Notes under the pieces: generated by a model
What the model saw: only the letters and a program-made list of their open reading frames with translations
Told to the model about the DNA's origin: nothing
The model's database searches: none
Program-made: the position numbers and the translations under genes
In this document: in pieces, positions 4,389 through 10,754 of the stretch
Numbering within the stretch: the first letter of the stretch is position 1
Layout: each line of letters starts with the position of its first letter
Assembly: GCA_001662655.1 (NCBI GenBank)
Contig: KV460230.1
Reading direction: 5' to 3' (one strand)
DNA length: 64,000 nucleotides
Source of the DNA: Pseudogymnoascus verrucosus
Taxonomy: Eukaryota

Positions 4389-6872
4389 CTAAGTCAAAGC
4401 CGAGAGCCCATGCGACACGGCCATCAACCTGTTCAGTGATTTTTCTACTTCTCTGGCACAAGAGTCTGTCATTCTGAGACCATCATGTCGGATTCCGGAC
4501 TTTGCATAATCGTCAGCTGCTGCAAAAAGATGCATTGCCCTGCTGACTGATGTAGTTTCAATTGACATTCGGAGGATTAAATTTTGAGTGCCCAAGGTAT
4601 CCGGAATCGATTCCAAAGGCAGCAACATTGTTTTGGCTCGCTTTAACTTTGGTCCCTGATGCGCCGCCATGGATTTTTGGCGTCTCATTAGATATGCTCG
4701 TGGATCGCCATCTTCGAGCACAGTTTTGATTATATTCTCTTGCACCGGCATTCGCTGCATTGCCACATTGCCCGCTTCAGCCTCCAGGCGAGCTACAGCA
4801 GCGGTTTCTTCTCGTAGCCTTCTGGTGCTTGTTACTTTCCTTCTCTCAAAATCCATGGCAGCATCTACATCGTCATGGAATGCTGATATGCTTGTTCTTC
4901 GTAATCCTTGCGATGGTGAAGTGTCGCCAATTGGAGTCAAATTGCTCGACTCGTATGCGTTCTCACGGGCCCCGGGTACAACCTCCGTCCTTCTAGGAGT
5001 GATAAAAGGCGTCTTAAATTTCCTCTGGAGCTTTTCCTTCGACTTAGTTTGAGTAGGTGGCGGTGACCATGGAAGTCCGACTGGAAGTTCTCGAGCGGTT
5101 ACGAATCCAGTTACGAATCCATTTGAGTATGGTGGTTTATAATTAGACTGAGACAGACCGTCCCCTGTTATGTGGTGGGACTGCTGCGGCTTGGGGCCAT
5201 GCTGAAGTTCTGCCAAATCATCAGTCTCATATGTCTGTTGCTTGTTTATCCATGTTTCGACCGAACTTTGCGTAGGGCCTGGTTTTGGCTGTTTCCAGGT
5301 CTGGCTTCCTGTTAAACGGTTGGGCATGTCTTCGGTGAGAAACAGATCGTCAGACGAAGCTGAGGGTGTGTCATCAACAGGAGTAATATATGACCTCAGC
5401 GGCCTTGGTCTAAGCGTCCTGGACCCATGAAGCCCACGCTCAGTTGCTGGAGTATTGAGCTTCGCGATGATCCAAGGGTTCAGCGTGTTGTGGTCACTGC
5501 GCTCTTGAGTACTAGGTGGTGATTGTGGCTCACAAGCAGCGTCTCTTAACAATTCCAACTCTCGACCCGATGCTTTATCAACAACGGCATCGGAAGTTAT
5601 ATGCCCCTGGATTTTGTTGTTTCTTGTCCCGTAATTGACTTTAGAAGTTTGAAAATCTGTCACGCCCATACTCTTTGACACCTCCACGCGTTGCTGAATT
5701 GCAGAATCATGACTCGCAGCAGGCTGGGGAGCAGGTAGGTCATTGAAGGTGTCATCCACTGGAATTGGGCGGATATTGGTAGAGTATAGGGATTTGAAGA
5801 GTTTTTCTGCGGCGGAAAGGATGGCATCCTCATCTTCGAACAGGACATCGTCCTTGGCAGGCTCGATATTGGGATCATAGCTGCCAATCGGACATGTAAT
5901 CCTCAAATATATGAATGGATCCTTTGGAGCTTCTTTGCTAGTGTTTGAAGCAAATGCTCGGATATGTTGCTTGTAGGAAGACACGACCTTTTTTAGGGTG
6001 CCTCGTGTGCAAGATACTGGTCTGGAGTCAACTGATGCATAATGACCACCTTTGAGTTTTGAGAAGTTCGAATCTGGACTCGGAAGGAAGGCCCGTATTC
6101 TAATATATGGGTTCGCTGTCGTTGTTTCGTTTTCATCAGCGGCATCAAAAATAGACGCATCATCTTCAGATGGGCTCGCTATTTCGATGCATTGTTTTGC
6201 AACATCTTTCCCAGCGACTTGAATTGCTGCCTCCTTGATATAACCTTTGGGATGCGGTATGTACGACCAATTCCCTTTGCCCGTCTTTGCCACCTTGAGA
6301 GTGAATCGAACTTGAAACCTCGCCAGAGCGTATGACTGAAGGATGTTCTTGATATTGGATATTGTTTTTGATGAATCGCTAATAGAAGTTTGCCTTCTGA
6401 CAGGGAAAGCGGAAAGAAAATTGGATACGCAGACAGTGGTACCAATGGGATGAGAGATAGATGACTTGCTTGATACACCCCCAGTGGCTTTGAGTTTTAC
6501 CACGAAAGCAACAGGCTCTCCTTCTGCTCGGGTTGTAATAGTCACGCTTCCAAGACTCACAGAACTGGCCAGAGCTTCGCCCCGAAATCCGAGACAGGAA
6601 CTACCAACTGTCCTCAATTCCTCGAAATTCCTCAACTTGCTGGTATGACCATGGCGTCCAAGCGAGTCAAGGTCTTCTTGGGCTATGCCGTGGCCATTGT
6701 CATGAACTTCAATCTTATCAACGGTATTTGCCGATATTATAACGTCAATCGATGTTGCCTTTGCATCAATGGCATTGTCAATGAGCTCCTTGACCAGTGA
6801 TGAAGGTGTTGTGAGGGCTTGACAGGAACCCAGGATCCTTGTGGTTGAAGATGGGAGTGGCTGGATTGCCAT
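4389..6872 (-). CDS. MutL-family mismatch repair protein (Mlh2/hPMS1-like: GHKL ATPase plus transducer domain, long low-complexity C-terminal part)
   Basis: VKELIDNAIDA, DNGHGI, HTSKL, GFRGEALAS, GTTV, DPNIEPAKDDV; 827 aa ORF with no DQHA endonuclease motif. Confidence 0.88.
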   Translation of the reverse strand: MAIQPLPSSTTRILGSCQALTTPSSLVKELIDNAIDAKATSIDVIISANTVDKIEVHDNGHGIAQEDLDSLGRHGHTSKLRNFEELRTVGSSCLGFRGEALASSVSLGSVTITTRAEGEPVAFVVKLKATGGVSSKSSISHPIGTTVCVSNFLSAFPVRRQTSISDSSKTISNIKNILQSYALARFQVRFTLKVAKTGKGNWSYIPHPKGYIKEAAIQVAGKDVAKQCIEIASPSEDDASIFDAADENETTTANPYIRIRAFLPSPDSNFSKLKGGHYASVDSRPVSCTRGTLKKVVSSYKQHIRAFASNTSKEAPKDPFIYLRITCPIGSYDPNIEPAKDDVLFEDEDAILSAAEKLFKSLYSTNIRPIPVDDTFNDLPAPQPAASHDSAIQQRVEVSKSMGVTDFQTSKVNYGTRNNKIQGHITSDAVVDKASGRELELLRDAACEPQSPPSTQERSDHNTLNPWIIAKLNTPATERGLHGSRTLRPRPLRSYITPVDDTPSASSDDLFLTEDMPNRLTGSQTWKQPKPGPTQSSVETWINKQQTYETDDLAELQHGPKPQQSHHITGDGLSQSNYKPPYSNGFVTGFVTARELPVGLPWSPPPTQTKSKEKLQRKFKTPFITPRRTEVVPGARENAYESSNLTPIGDTSPSQGLRRTSISAFHDDVDAAMDFERRKVTSTRRLREETAAVARLEAEAGNVAMQRMPVQENIIKTVLEDGDPRAYLMRRQKSMAAHQGPKLKRAKTMLLPLESIPDTLGTQNLILRMSIETTSVSRAMHLFAAADDYAKSGIRHDGLRMTDSCAREVEKSLNRLMAVSHGLSALT

Positions 6873-7272
6873 ACTGATGATTCTGGGGCTCAGAGACGCA
6901 GCAGCATCACATTATATCATTTGGCATTCTACGCCATTAATCTGATAACAAATGAAGGCTTCTATTAGATTACATTTTTTCTCCTCATAGAGACTGGATG
7001 GTGGTGATAATGATGTGGTGAACGCTATGCCGAGGAGAGGTTGACGTGGTTACCCATGAAACCTTATCGCGTCTGATAAGCCATGTGTGGGATGTGGATG
7101 TTTGGTTGACTCACGGAAAAAACCCGTCCCTTTTAGGTGCAGCACGCTCATTAACCCCGCAAAACCTCAAGACGTTCTTTACAATACCGACACCACGTCG
7201 CGACTTATTACCAGAGCGCTCTGGCTGCGCCGAACGCCGTTTAGACCAAGCTCACGCCTTTCAATAGCCAGA

Positions 7273-10200
7273 ATGGCCACCAATTCCGGGGCAACCAACC
7301 CAAGTAGGATATAACGATCACGTCTGGTTGAATGCACACAAGCTTACCACATTAATACAGTCGCTGAGCAGGCAGGCCCAACTAGCCTCGCTGCGTCTGG
7401 AAACGATGCGGCCAGCAAGACTGGAGCGCCTGCAGCTGGTGCCGAGGGAACAAAAGTGAAGAGCGAAAAAGAACGTATGTGCTCCTCGGCGTTGCCAAAC
7501 TCTCCTAGATCTTGCAACTTTGGCACAGGGGTATGACTAACTCGTTGCACTGTAGTCGAGAGAGAACGCAAGAAGGCTGAAAAACAAGCCAAATTCGACG
7601 CAAAGAAAAAGGGGTCTGCCACTGCTCCTGCTGCTGCACTTTCGAGCAAGAGCAAGGAAAAGAAGGCCAAGGCCGCCGAGAAGGCTGCGGAGGAGACTCT
7701 CCCCGAATATGTAGAGGATACACCGTTCGGAGAGAAGAAGAGTATGGCTGGCCTACTCAAGAAAGTGACATGAGACTAACGGTGCGGCAGTCCTGAAGTC
7801 ATTCGACGACCCTCAGTATAAAGCATACAACCCGATAGCCGTCGAGTCGGCCTGGTATTCTTGGTGGGAGAAGGAAGGCTTCTTCAAGCCCGAATTCACC
7901 GCGGATGGCGAAATCAAACCGGAGGGAAAGTTCGTTATCGTGGAGCCACCTCCAAACGTAACGGGCATGCTCCACATCGGACACGCCCTCGCAAACGCTC
8001 TGCAGGATGTCATGATCAGATGGAACCGTATGCAGGGCAAGACCACACTTTGGCTTCCAGGATGCGACCACGCTGGTATTTCCACACAAAGCGTTGTAGA
8101 GAAGACTCTTTACCGCAAAGAAGGCAAAACTCGCCATGATCTTGGGAGAGAAAAGTTCGTCGAAACTGTGTGGGAGTGGAAAGGAGAGTATCACCAGAAG
8201 ATCAATGCCGTCTTGAGGAAGATGGGAGGATCATTCGACTGGACTCGCGAGGCCTTCACCATGGATGAGAACCTTTCAGCTGCTGTTACGGAAACATTCT
8301 GTAAACTGCATGAAGAAGGCACCATCTATCGCGCTAACCGTCTCGTTAATTGGTGCACACAACTCAATACCGCTCTATCCAATTTAGAGGTGGAGAACAA
8401 GGAGCTCACCGGCCGCACTCTCCTTGACGTTCCAGGTTACGAGAAGAAAATCGAGTTTGGTGTCATTATTCACTTCAAGTACCCAATTGAGGGAACTGAA
8501 GAAACTATTGAAGTGGCTACTACGCGTATCGAGACTATGCTTGGTGATACCGGCATTGCTGTACACCCAGACGATGAGAGATATAAGCACCTTGTCGGCA
8601 AGAACGCTGTTCACCCCTTTATCAAGGGCCGCCTCCTTCCAATTTTCGCAGATACATATGTTGAGAAGGATTTCGGAACTGGCGCTGTCAAGGTGACCCC
8701 TGCTCACGACCCCAACGATTTTACTTTGGGTAAGAACCACAACCTTGAATTCATCAACATCTTGAACGACAATGGAACTTTCAATGAGAACGGAGGCCCC
8801 TACGAAGGCCAGAAGCGATTTGACGTACGATATACGATTCAAGATGACCTGAAGGCCCTCGGCCTGTTCGTCGATAAGAAAGACAATGCTATGAAGGTGC
8901 CGTTATGCGAGAAGTCAAAGGACGTAATCGAGCCGTTGTTGAAACCACAATGGTGGATGAAGATGAAGGATCTTGCTGCCGAGGCTGTCAAGGTTGTCAA
9001 GAACGGAGAAATCAAAATCCTCCCAGAATCTGCCGAGAAGAGCTATTATAGATGGATGGAAGAGCCACAAGATTGGTGTTTGTCAAGACAGCTCTGGTGG
9101 GGTCACCAGATCCCAATTTACTATGCCCAAGTCGACGGGGATAATTCCTATGATGCTGATGAAAACCTTTGGTTCGCTGGGCGCACGGAAGAGGAGGCGC
9201 TGGAGAAGGCACGCAAGGCACTGCCTGGCAAGACTTTTACACTTAAGAGAGACGAGGATGTCTTGGACACATGGTTTTCGTCCGGTTTATGGCCATTCTC
9301 TACTCTCGGATGGCCGAACGCAACCCACGACCTCGAGAAGCTATACCCTACTTCGATGTTGGAGACCGGATGGGACATTCTGTTCTTCTGGGTTGCCCGC
9401 ATGATCTTCCTTGGGAAGAAATTGACCGGAAAGGTTCCTTTCACAGAAGTGTACTGCCATTCACTTGTCCGTGACTCTGAGGGGCGCAAGATGTCGAAGT
9501 CGTTAGGTAACGTTATTGATCCGCAAGATATTATCCACGGTATTTCTCTGCAAGACTTGCACGCCAAGCTCCTGTCAGGTAACCTGAATCCAAATGAGGT
9601 TGAGAAGGCAACAAAGTACCAGAAGACATCCTTCCCAGACGGAATCCCGCAGTGTGGCACTGACGCCCTGCGTTTTGCTTTGGTCTCCTACACCACAGGC
9701 GGTGGCGACATTGCCTTTGATATCAAGGTCATCTACGGTTACCGCAAGTTTTGCAACAAGATCTACCAGGCCACCAAGTATGTCCTTGGCAACCTTCCCG
9801 CCGATTTCGTTCCACAGAAGAGCGCAAAGAAGACTGGCAAGGAGTCTTTGGCTGAGAAGTGGGTCCTGCACAAGTTCACCAACGCGTCCAAGGACATCAA
9901 CAGAGCTCTGGAAGAGCGCGAGTTCATGCGTTCGACAAACATTGTCTACCATTACTGGTACCAGAGTCTGTGCGATGTTTTCATTGAGAACTCGAAGGCC
10001 ATCATCCAAAGTGGTACTGATGAGGAGAAGCTCTCCGCCCTGAACACCTTGTACACCGCCCTTGAGGGTGCTCTTACCATGATTCACCCCTACATGCCTT
10101 TCCTTACTGAGGAACTCTGGCAGCGTCTCCCACGCCGCCAGGATGACACGACTCCTTCCATTGTCAAGGCCGCGTACCCCGTGTACGATGCTGAGATGGA

Positions 10201-10754
10201 TGACCCAGCGTCTGAGGAAGCCTACGAGCTTGTCCTGGGTGTCTCCAAGGGAATTAGGTCCTTGATGTCCGAGTACTCTCTCAAGGACGAAGCCGAAGGT
10301 ATGTCAAAACTCTATATGCCAATGTAAACGTTACTAATAGTCCCTAGTCTACATCCAAGCCTTCGACTCCACCTCCCAATCCACCGTCACCGCCCAGACG
10401 CAGTCCATCAAGTCCCTCTGTGGCAAGGGTGTATCCACCGTCCAGATCCTCGGCGCCTCTGACTCCCGCCCCGCCGGCTGCGTCCCCTTCTCCGTCTCCG
10501 CCGCAGCCGTCGTCTACGTCCGCGTCACCGGCCGCGTCGACATCGACAATGAGATCGCGAAGGCGAACAAGAAGCTCCAGAAGACTCACCAGGGTATCGA
10601 GAAGCAGCGCAAGATCCTCGATGACCCAGACTACAAGGCCAAGGTCAGCGAGGCGCTCCAGGAGGTCGAGCGCAAGAGATTGGCGGACTTGGAGGCTGAG
10701 CAGCGTGGGTTTGAGGAGACGATTAAGCAGTTTGAGCAGCTTAAGTTGGAGTAG
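7273..10754 (+). CDS. VAS1: Valyl-tRNA synthetase; introns ~7304-7360, 7475-7555, 7742-7790, 10299-10347; probable N-terminal extension from ACG at 7195
   Basis: [13 protein letters not shown] (HIGH), [37 protein letters not shown]-terminal coiled coil; splice sites keep the frame. Confidence 0.96.

Follow-up and report, generated by a model that had tools for sequence, protein, structure and literature searches.

We analyzed a 64,000-nucleotide stretch of the Pseudogymnoascus verrucosus genome (contig KV460230.1 of assembly GCA_001662655.1; hereafter the window), which carries the gene for valyl-tRNA synthetase (ValRS), a class I aminoacyl-tRNA synthetase of Pseudogymnoascus species. This gene very probably yields two proteins from one mRNA: a minor isoform that is initiated at an ACG codon at position 7195 and bears a matrix-targeting leader, and the cytosolic enzyme that is initiated at the AUG at position 7273. 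An earlier reading of the letters by themselves (hereafter the sequence-only reading) had proposed that leaky scanning past this ACG gives a mitochondrial ValRS. Conservation of the ACG, its context, the reading frame and the encoded peptide, together with the mRNA of a close relative, supports that proposal.

In the mechanism we propose, a single nuclear ValRS gene would give rise to one mRNA and two proteins. The ACG at 7195 would be the first start that scanning ribosomes encounter, 33-62 nt downstream of the 5' ends in the relative's RNA, and a minority of ribosomes would initiate there with initiator Met-tRNA (Met-tRNAi). The product would be ValRS preceded by a 26-residue, arginine-rich leader without acidic residues, which would act as a mitochondrial presequence and would presumably be cleaved upon import. 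Since ACG initiates weakly and the intervening sequence contains no AUG, most ribosomes would continue to the AUG at 7273 and synthesize the cytosolic enzyme. The genome probably has no separate gene for a mitochondrial ValRS.

The leader, its conservation and its place in the mRNA

The anatomy of the leader agrees with what the sequence-only reading had described. The ACG at 7195-7197 opens 26 in-frame codons that run without a stop up to the ATG at 7273-7275. These codons specify seven arginines and no aspartate or glutamate, and serine, leucine, alanine and threonine make up 12 of the 26 residues. No in-frame ATG occurs between the TGA at 7057-7059 and the ATG at 7273, and an aspartate codon (GAC, 7189-7191) stands two codons 5' of the ACG. 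The context of the ACG (gacaccACGt) has A at -3 and C at -4, which makes it a good fungal initiation context. Between 7195 and 7272 there is no AUG in any frame. The simple features of the leader fit a mitochondrial presequence (no acidic residue, seven arginines and, by a simple feature calculation, a hydrophobic moment of 0.67 at 100 degrees), and we infer that it is one.

We then compared the leader among relatives. With residues 1-200 of exon 4 as query, metagenome contigs yielded 80 loci at 58-99% identity, and a conserved cytosolic N-terminus pattern (MATN... or MALN...) was found in 46 of them. Of the 34 loci that did not match the pattern, three were analyzed further. Nine loci have a close MATN-type N-terminus and a contiguous upstream frame, and these constitute the ACG-type set (L001-L007, L009 and L011). 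We call this set "Leotiomycete-like" from the match of the N-terminus to named Leotiomycete proteins, not from a tree.

The sequence-only reading had named conservation of the ACG and its frame in relatives as a check on the proposal, and the ACG, the A at -3, the frame and the peptide are kept in 9/9 loci. As in the window, ACG followed by TCG or TCT heads an open leader of 26 or 28 codons in every one of the nine. The conserved peptide is TS[RK][LF]x.R[AV]L[WR][LV]RR[ST]P. The two longer leaders, in L001 and L009, differ in length from the others by exactly two codons, and arginine within the leader is maintained through codon exchanges (CGA/CGT/CGC/AGG and CGA/AGA/AAG). Pooled pN/pS over codons 2-17 was 0.52 in frame, compared with 0.70 and 1.42 in the other two frames, which hold 3 and 6 stops; this pattern speaks for selection on the protein.

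The leader had a mean pairwise identity (36 pairs) of 0.67, against 0.53 for the 78 nt before it and 0.50 +/- 0.03 in a shuffled control. By this measure, the ACG marks the 5' limit of conservation, since the similarity of those 78 nt does not exceed that of shuffled sequence. The frame is interrupted by a stop 5, 8 and 10 codons 5' of the ACG in L007, L004 and L009, respectively. In L007, a tandem ACG ACG provides the sole near-cognate codons between the in-frame stop and the leader; the tandem arrangement is present in L005 and L007 only, and the window has a single ACG.

A perfect palindrome, CCAGAGCGCTCTGG, lies at 7211-7224 over codons 6-10 (T-R-A-L-W), and AGA GCG CTC TGG in this region is unchanged in 5/9 ACG-type sequences. 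A hairpin formed here, 3' of the ACG, that boosts initiation was considered and rejected: the fold of 7189-7260 gave z = +0.63, and 146 of 200 shuffled sequences folded as well. When compensatory changes were sought in the alignment fold of the nine sequences, none of the seven pairs showed any.

Evidence at the RNA level comes from contigs of a close relative, which derive from two runs of different studies, X1 and X2. These contigs skip three GT..AG introns and therefore represent processed RNA, with joints at 7474/7556, 7741/7791 and 7298/7366 (the last with 10 replaced letters). Their 5' ends lie at 7133 (X1) and 7162 (X2), both upstream of 7195, and the ACG is therefore within the mRNA. 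A transcription start downstream of 7195, which the sequence-only reading had listed as evidence that would speak against it, is not borne out by these contigs. Neither contig contains an upstream exon, and both are colinear with the genome to their 5' ends. The X2 contig is preceded by 24 letters that we take to be an Illumina adapter tail, which hints weakly at a genuine fragment end. Only two changes in the leader distinguish the relative from the window, an Arg-to-Lys replacement at 7244 and a synonymous change at 7254.

The nearest ATG 5' of the ACG is at 7098, 97 nt away and outside both contigs. Three ATGs in one frame, including this one, form a short upstream open reading frame (uORF) at 7083-7109 (ATG TGT GGG ATG TGG ATG TTT GGT TGA). 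The uORF is 5' of the relative's contig ends and is therefore probably outside the main ValRS mRNA; longer ValRS transcripts would contain it. A further contig, from a more distant relative (run X23, record 14; 69 differences over 7203-7741), is without the 49-nt intron 3 and retains introns 1 and 2, which may reflect loss of intron 3 in that lineage or partly spliced RNA.

Other fungal lineages and known dual-localised synthetases

Another 23 loci, which share the N-terminus MALNAASHN, carry AUA or AUU and then CUN at the equivalent place, with A at -3 (L010, L012-L021, L027, L028, L030, L031, L033, L042, L052-L054, L056, L058 and L059). The leaders of these AUA/AUU-type loci are 20-27 codons long, have the form IL..[RK][AST]L..R and represent 14 distinct peptides. 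They are arginine-rich, without an acidic residue, and contain no AUG before the main AUG. Judged from these shared features, they appear to be the same device with a different near-cognate codon. The MALNAASHN N-terminus is also found in named Cryomyces proteins. A stop lies three codons 5' of the AUA in L014. In L033, ACG and ATA stand side by side.

At three further loci (L008, L047 and L051), the leader is headed by an in-frame AUG, e.g. MIWNSILQPLSTRAS... in L008, as in N. crassa. These AUG-headed leaders indicate a probable exchange between AUG and near-cognate starts.

Initiation contexts were compared in 24 sequences, comprising the window, 8 of the 9 ACG-type loci and 15 of the 23 AUA/AUU-type loci. 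The nine loci outside this set have leader peptides identical to that of an included locus. The near-cognate codon has A at -3 in 24/24 sequences and C at -4 in most. Every leader in the set is free of D/E, contains 5-7 R/K and has an amphipathic N-terminal half, and no ATG in any frame intervenes between the near-cognate codon and the main AUG in 24/24. Leaky scanning, as invoked by the sequence-only reading, requires that such ATGs be absent, and 0 ATG occur in 1,683 nt of leader (23/23 sequences) vs 20.7 expected, a depletion that overstates independence through kinship and that in part merely reflects absent Met codons. The expectation was derived from 85 ATG in 6,900 nt (300 nt upstream at the same 23 loci). 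At the main AUG, A is at -3 in 8 of the 9 ACG-type sequences (T in L003), and G is at +4 in all nine.

On balance, we favor the view that much of Pezizomycotina makes its mitochondrial ValRS only via a near-cognate start, which would have been exchanged between clades while the leader and the A at -3 were kept (ACG in the Leotiomycete-like set, AUA/AUU in the MALNAASHN group, and AUG in Neurospora-like fungi and a few others).

Near-cognate starts are known from other synthetases. The S. cerevisiae genes ALA1 (alanyl-tRNA synthetase, AlaRS; upstream ACG codons) and GRS1 (glycyl-tRNA synthetase, GlyRS; UUG) make their mitochondrial forms from near-cognate starts (PMC3245939, PMC7600831, PMC2909995). 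The sequence-only reading had cited the same two precedents, ALA1 with ACG and GRS1 with TTG, in agreement with these sources (PMC3245939, PMC7600831). Further non-AUG cases are the AlaRS of C. albicans and S. pombe and the GlyRS of S. pombe (PMC3245939, PMC7600831, PMC7049704). The mechanism proposed for the window is like that of ALA1 and GRS1 in that one gene and one mRNA would serve, an upstream in-frame near-cognate codon would add a short presequence, and the downstream AUG would be reached by leaky scanning. It is unlike them in that another synthetase is concerned, the window has a single ACG, and the evidence here is comparative, whereas the yeast cases were shown genetically.

In Cryptococcus, leucyl-tRNA synthetase (LeuRS; gccaccACGAUU; ACG AUU) and arginyl-tRNA synthetase (ArgRS; cccaccAUU) have near-cognate starts with ribosome-profiling support (Wallace et al. 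2020, PMC7049704). As in the window, the near-cognate codon stands in a strong caccNNN-type context before a predicted presequence, and the Cryptococcus synthetases are single-copy (PMC7049704). In contrast, the Cryptococcus ValRS uses two AUGs (PMC7049704), and the near-cognate ValRS described here occurs in Pezizomycotina-like fungi. Weak AUG and near-cognate starts have been repeatedly exchanged in fungi (Wallace et al. 2020, PMC7049704).

The fungal ValRS cases described in this source with two AUGs are yeast VAS1 and those of Candida, Cryptococcus and Neurospora, and S. pombe has a separate mitochondrial ValRS gene (PMC7049704). In Table S5, the single Val entry for N. crassa is NCU01965, a gene of the DualAUG type (PMC7049704). 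The window's gene encodes the ortholog of S. cerevisiae VAS1 and N. crassa NCU01965 (cyt-20), for each of which one gene serves both compartments and the presequence lies directly 5' of the cytosolic start. Unlike the window, which has no upstream in-frame AUG, VAS1 and NCU01965, both of the DualAUG type, use an upstream AUG, and yeast also has two transcript classes. A GRS1 leader fused to ValRS has been described to rescue a yeast vas1 allele without the mitochondrial form (PMC7600831). The cyt-20 gene reportedly encodes both forms of ValRS. We found no report of a non-AUG ValRS start in the literature searched, a search with most subscription journals outside its coverage, and the main text of Ivanov et al. 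2017 (PMC5487733) does not mention valyl or cyt-20.

Weighing the two-start mechanism against its alternatives

Several observations count against the proposed mechanism or limit its reach. The composition of the leader was rejected as sole proof of a presequence, being too weak: when the six frames of the window were searched for stop-free 26-mers, 305 of 54,393 (0.56%) combined the absence of D/E with seven or more R/K and a helical hydrophobic moment no lower than that of the leader. A stop-free run of 26 codons is itself expected in ~29% of random frames, (61/64)^26. Taken singly, the window's sequence is only modestly unusual, and the leader owes its significance to conservation in relatives, not to composition. 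That conservation has limits of its own. The dN/dS of 0.41 over codons 2-17 points to no more than moderate constraint. Variable columns at codon positions 1, 2 and 3 number 12, 7 and 11 of 17, which is not the classic pattern, partly because arginine and leucine codons change synonymously at position 1. In addition, the sequences are phylogenetically related, and their counts overstate the number of independent observations. The RNA contigs are those of a close relative rather than of the window's strain, and they cannot fix the transcription start.

The scan adds further points of this kind. Nine of the 46 loci are without a contiguous leader and have an in-frame stop 1-12 codons 5' of the AUG (L025, L026, L029, L035, L041, L044-L046 and L049). 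Therefore, another route to a mitochondrial ValRS must exist in some fungi. These loci are the chief argument against regarding the mechanism as universal. In five MALNASSHN-type loci (L038-L040, L043 and L057), 68-99 open in-frame codons precede the AUG and the start of the leader is not placeable. These five share a common CAA TTG (C/A)GG, and their leader holds an acidic residue. One of the leaderless loci, L025, has six tandem copies of a 12-nt unit directly 5' of the ATG.

Four alternative explanations were considered, which even taken together we judge unlikely. The one that survives best, itself improbable, holds that the 5' leader is untranslated and kept for an RNA-level or regulatory reason, with the mitochondrial ValRS supplied by another gene or by presequence-free import. 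The leaderless loci lend it some support, in that another route exists somewhere. It accounts poorly for leader lengths that differ by whole codons, for arginines kept through multi-base synonymous changes and for the fact that only the reading frame is stop-free, the alternative frames holding 3 and 6 stops. Moreover, no stable or covarying structure was found in the leader (z = +0.63; 0/7 pairs compensatory), and N. crassa, with one ValRS entry, has an AUG-headed leader at the same place.

Slightly less probable still is translation of the leader from another near-cognate codon, namely codon 11 (CTG 7225; CUG/GVG-type), ATT 7207, ACG 7234 or ATA 7264, with the ACG at 7195 a mere conserved threonine codon or context element. 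In 9/9 ACG-type sequences, codon 11 reads CTG or GTG, either of which is near-cognate. However, it has T at -3, and codons 2-10, which lie 5' of it, are conserved as peptide (TS[RK][LF]..R[AV]L[WR]); translation from codon 1 is therefore needed. ATT 7207, ACG 7234 and ATA 7264 are not kept as near-cognates in relatives, and conservation starts exactly at the ACG at 7195.

It is very improbable that the coding leader takes its start from an AUG in a hidden exon further 5', joined by splicing just before 7195. The upstream stop in L007 and L014 is TAG, in principle a possible splice acceptor, and the window has ttttag at 7131-7136. Against this, the RNA contigs from the two studies follow the genome without a joint as far as 7133 and 7162, the adapter-like letters being their only loose end, and no acceptor is conserved beside the ACG in the nine sequences. 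An upstream exon would also leave the invariant ACG with A at -3 unexplained.

We give just as little weight to an ACG-initiated extension made for a purpose other than mitochondrial import, since the leader has the composition of a matrix presequence in 24/24 sequences (0 D/E, 5-7 R/K, amphipathic N-terminal half), occupies the position of the predicted or verified presequences in the ValRS of yeast, Candida, Cryptococcus and Neurospora, and belongs to an enzyme that mitochondria require.

Gene structure and the annotation gap

The product of exon 4 scores 977.1 bits on the valS equivalog TIGR00422, above the curated cut-off of 612.1, and contains the class I catalytic domain (PF00133, 4.6e-159) and the anticodon-binding domain (PF08264, 1.6e-28). 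Its best database match is a 1,081-residue Pseudogymnoascus sp. protein with 98% identity, and the spliced reading of the window gives the same N-terminus (MATN...) as this protein. The gene lies on the + strand and has five exons (Table 1).

Table 1. Features of the ValRS gene and its 5' region, in window coordinates.
Feature	Position	Strand	Evidence
In-frame TGA closing the frame 5' of the leader	7057..7059	+	
mRNA 5' leader ahead of the ACG, without ATG in any frame	7133..7194	+	relative's RNA contigs
Initiation context gacaccACGt, A at -3, C at -4	7189..7198	+	alignment
ACG, proposed near-cognate start of the mitochondrial isoform	7195..7197	+	conservation in relatives
26-codon N-terminal extension (M)SRLITRALWLRRTPFRPSSRLSIAR, putative mitochondrial presequence	7195..7272	+	
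AUG start of the cytosolic isoform, context gccagaATGg	7273..7275	+	annotated homologues begin MATN...
Exon 1 (from the AUG)	7273..7303	+	
Intron 1, 57 nt, GT..AG, in-frame TAA inside	7304..7360	+	skipped in RNA contigs X1, X2; spliced reading matches protein P0003
Exon 2	7361..7474	+	
Intron 2, 81 nt, GT..AG	7475..7555	+	joint 7474/7556 in X1, X2
Exon 3, Lys-rich N-terminal appendix	7556..7741	+	
Intron 3, 49 nt, GT..AG	7742..7790	+	joint 7741/7791 in X1, X2
Exon 4: ValRS catalytic core, editing domain, anticodon-binding domain	7791..10297	+	TIGR00422, PF00133, PF08264, tblastn of P0003
Intron 4, ends GTATGT..TAG	10298..10346	+	gap between P0003 tblastn segments
Exon 5 including the stop codon	10347..10754	+	tblastn of P0003

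A MutL-family mismatch-repair gene (PF13589, PF01119) lies divergently on the - strand at 4389-6911. Its first in-frame ATG is at 6872, and 400 nt separate it from the ValRS ATG. In the relative's RNA, a contig of the MutL-family gene extends to 7135-7159 and the ValRS contig starts at 7133-7162. From these contig ends, the two transcripts seem to have adjoining or slightly overlapping 5' ends.

The sequence-only reading had anticipated that gene callers would miss the leader, and none of the 29 annotated homologues examined carries it. Several of these leaderless homologues bear the name 'mitochondrial'.

The mechanism itself is already known, and what would be new, on the literature searched, is that ValRS joins the synthetases with near-cognate starts, of which AlaRS, GlyRS, LeuRS and ArgRS were known. 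To this, the present analysis adds the breadth of conservation, the exchange of ACG, AUA/AUU and AUG at one site, and a systematic annotation gap. The exchange of starts at the ValRS site lends support to the proposal of Wallace et al. 2020 that fungi switch between weak AUG and near-cognate starts. Provided that the ACG (or AUA/AUU) is truly used as a start, an isoform is absent from mitochondrial proteome predictions for a large group of fungi, plant and animal pathogens among them, and it will keep escaping gene callers that accept only AUG. Should the reading hold across Pezizomycotina, virtually every annotation of these fungi would lack the mitochondrial isoform of an essential enzyme, and the ValRS locus would offer a natural series for measuring start-codon strength against the split between cytosol and mitochondria.

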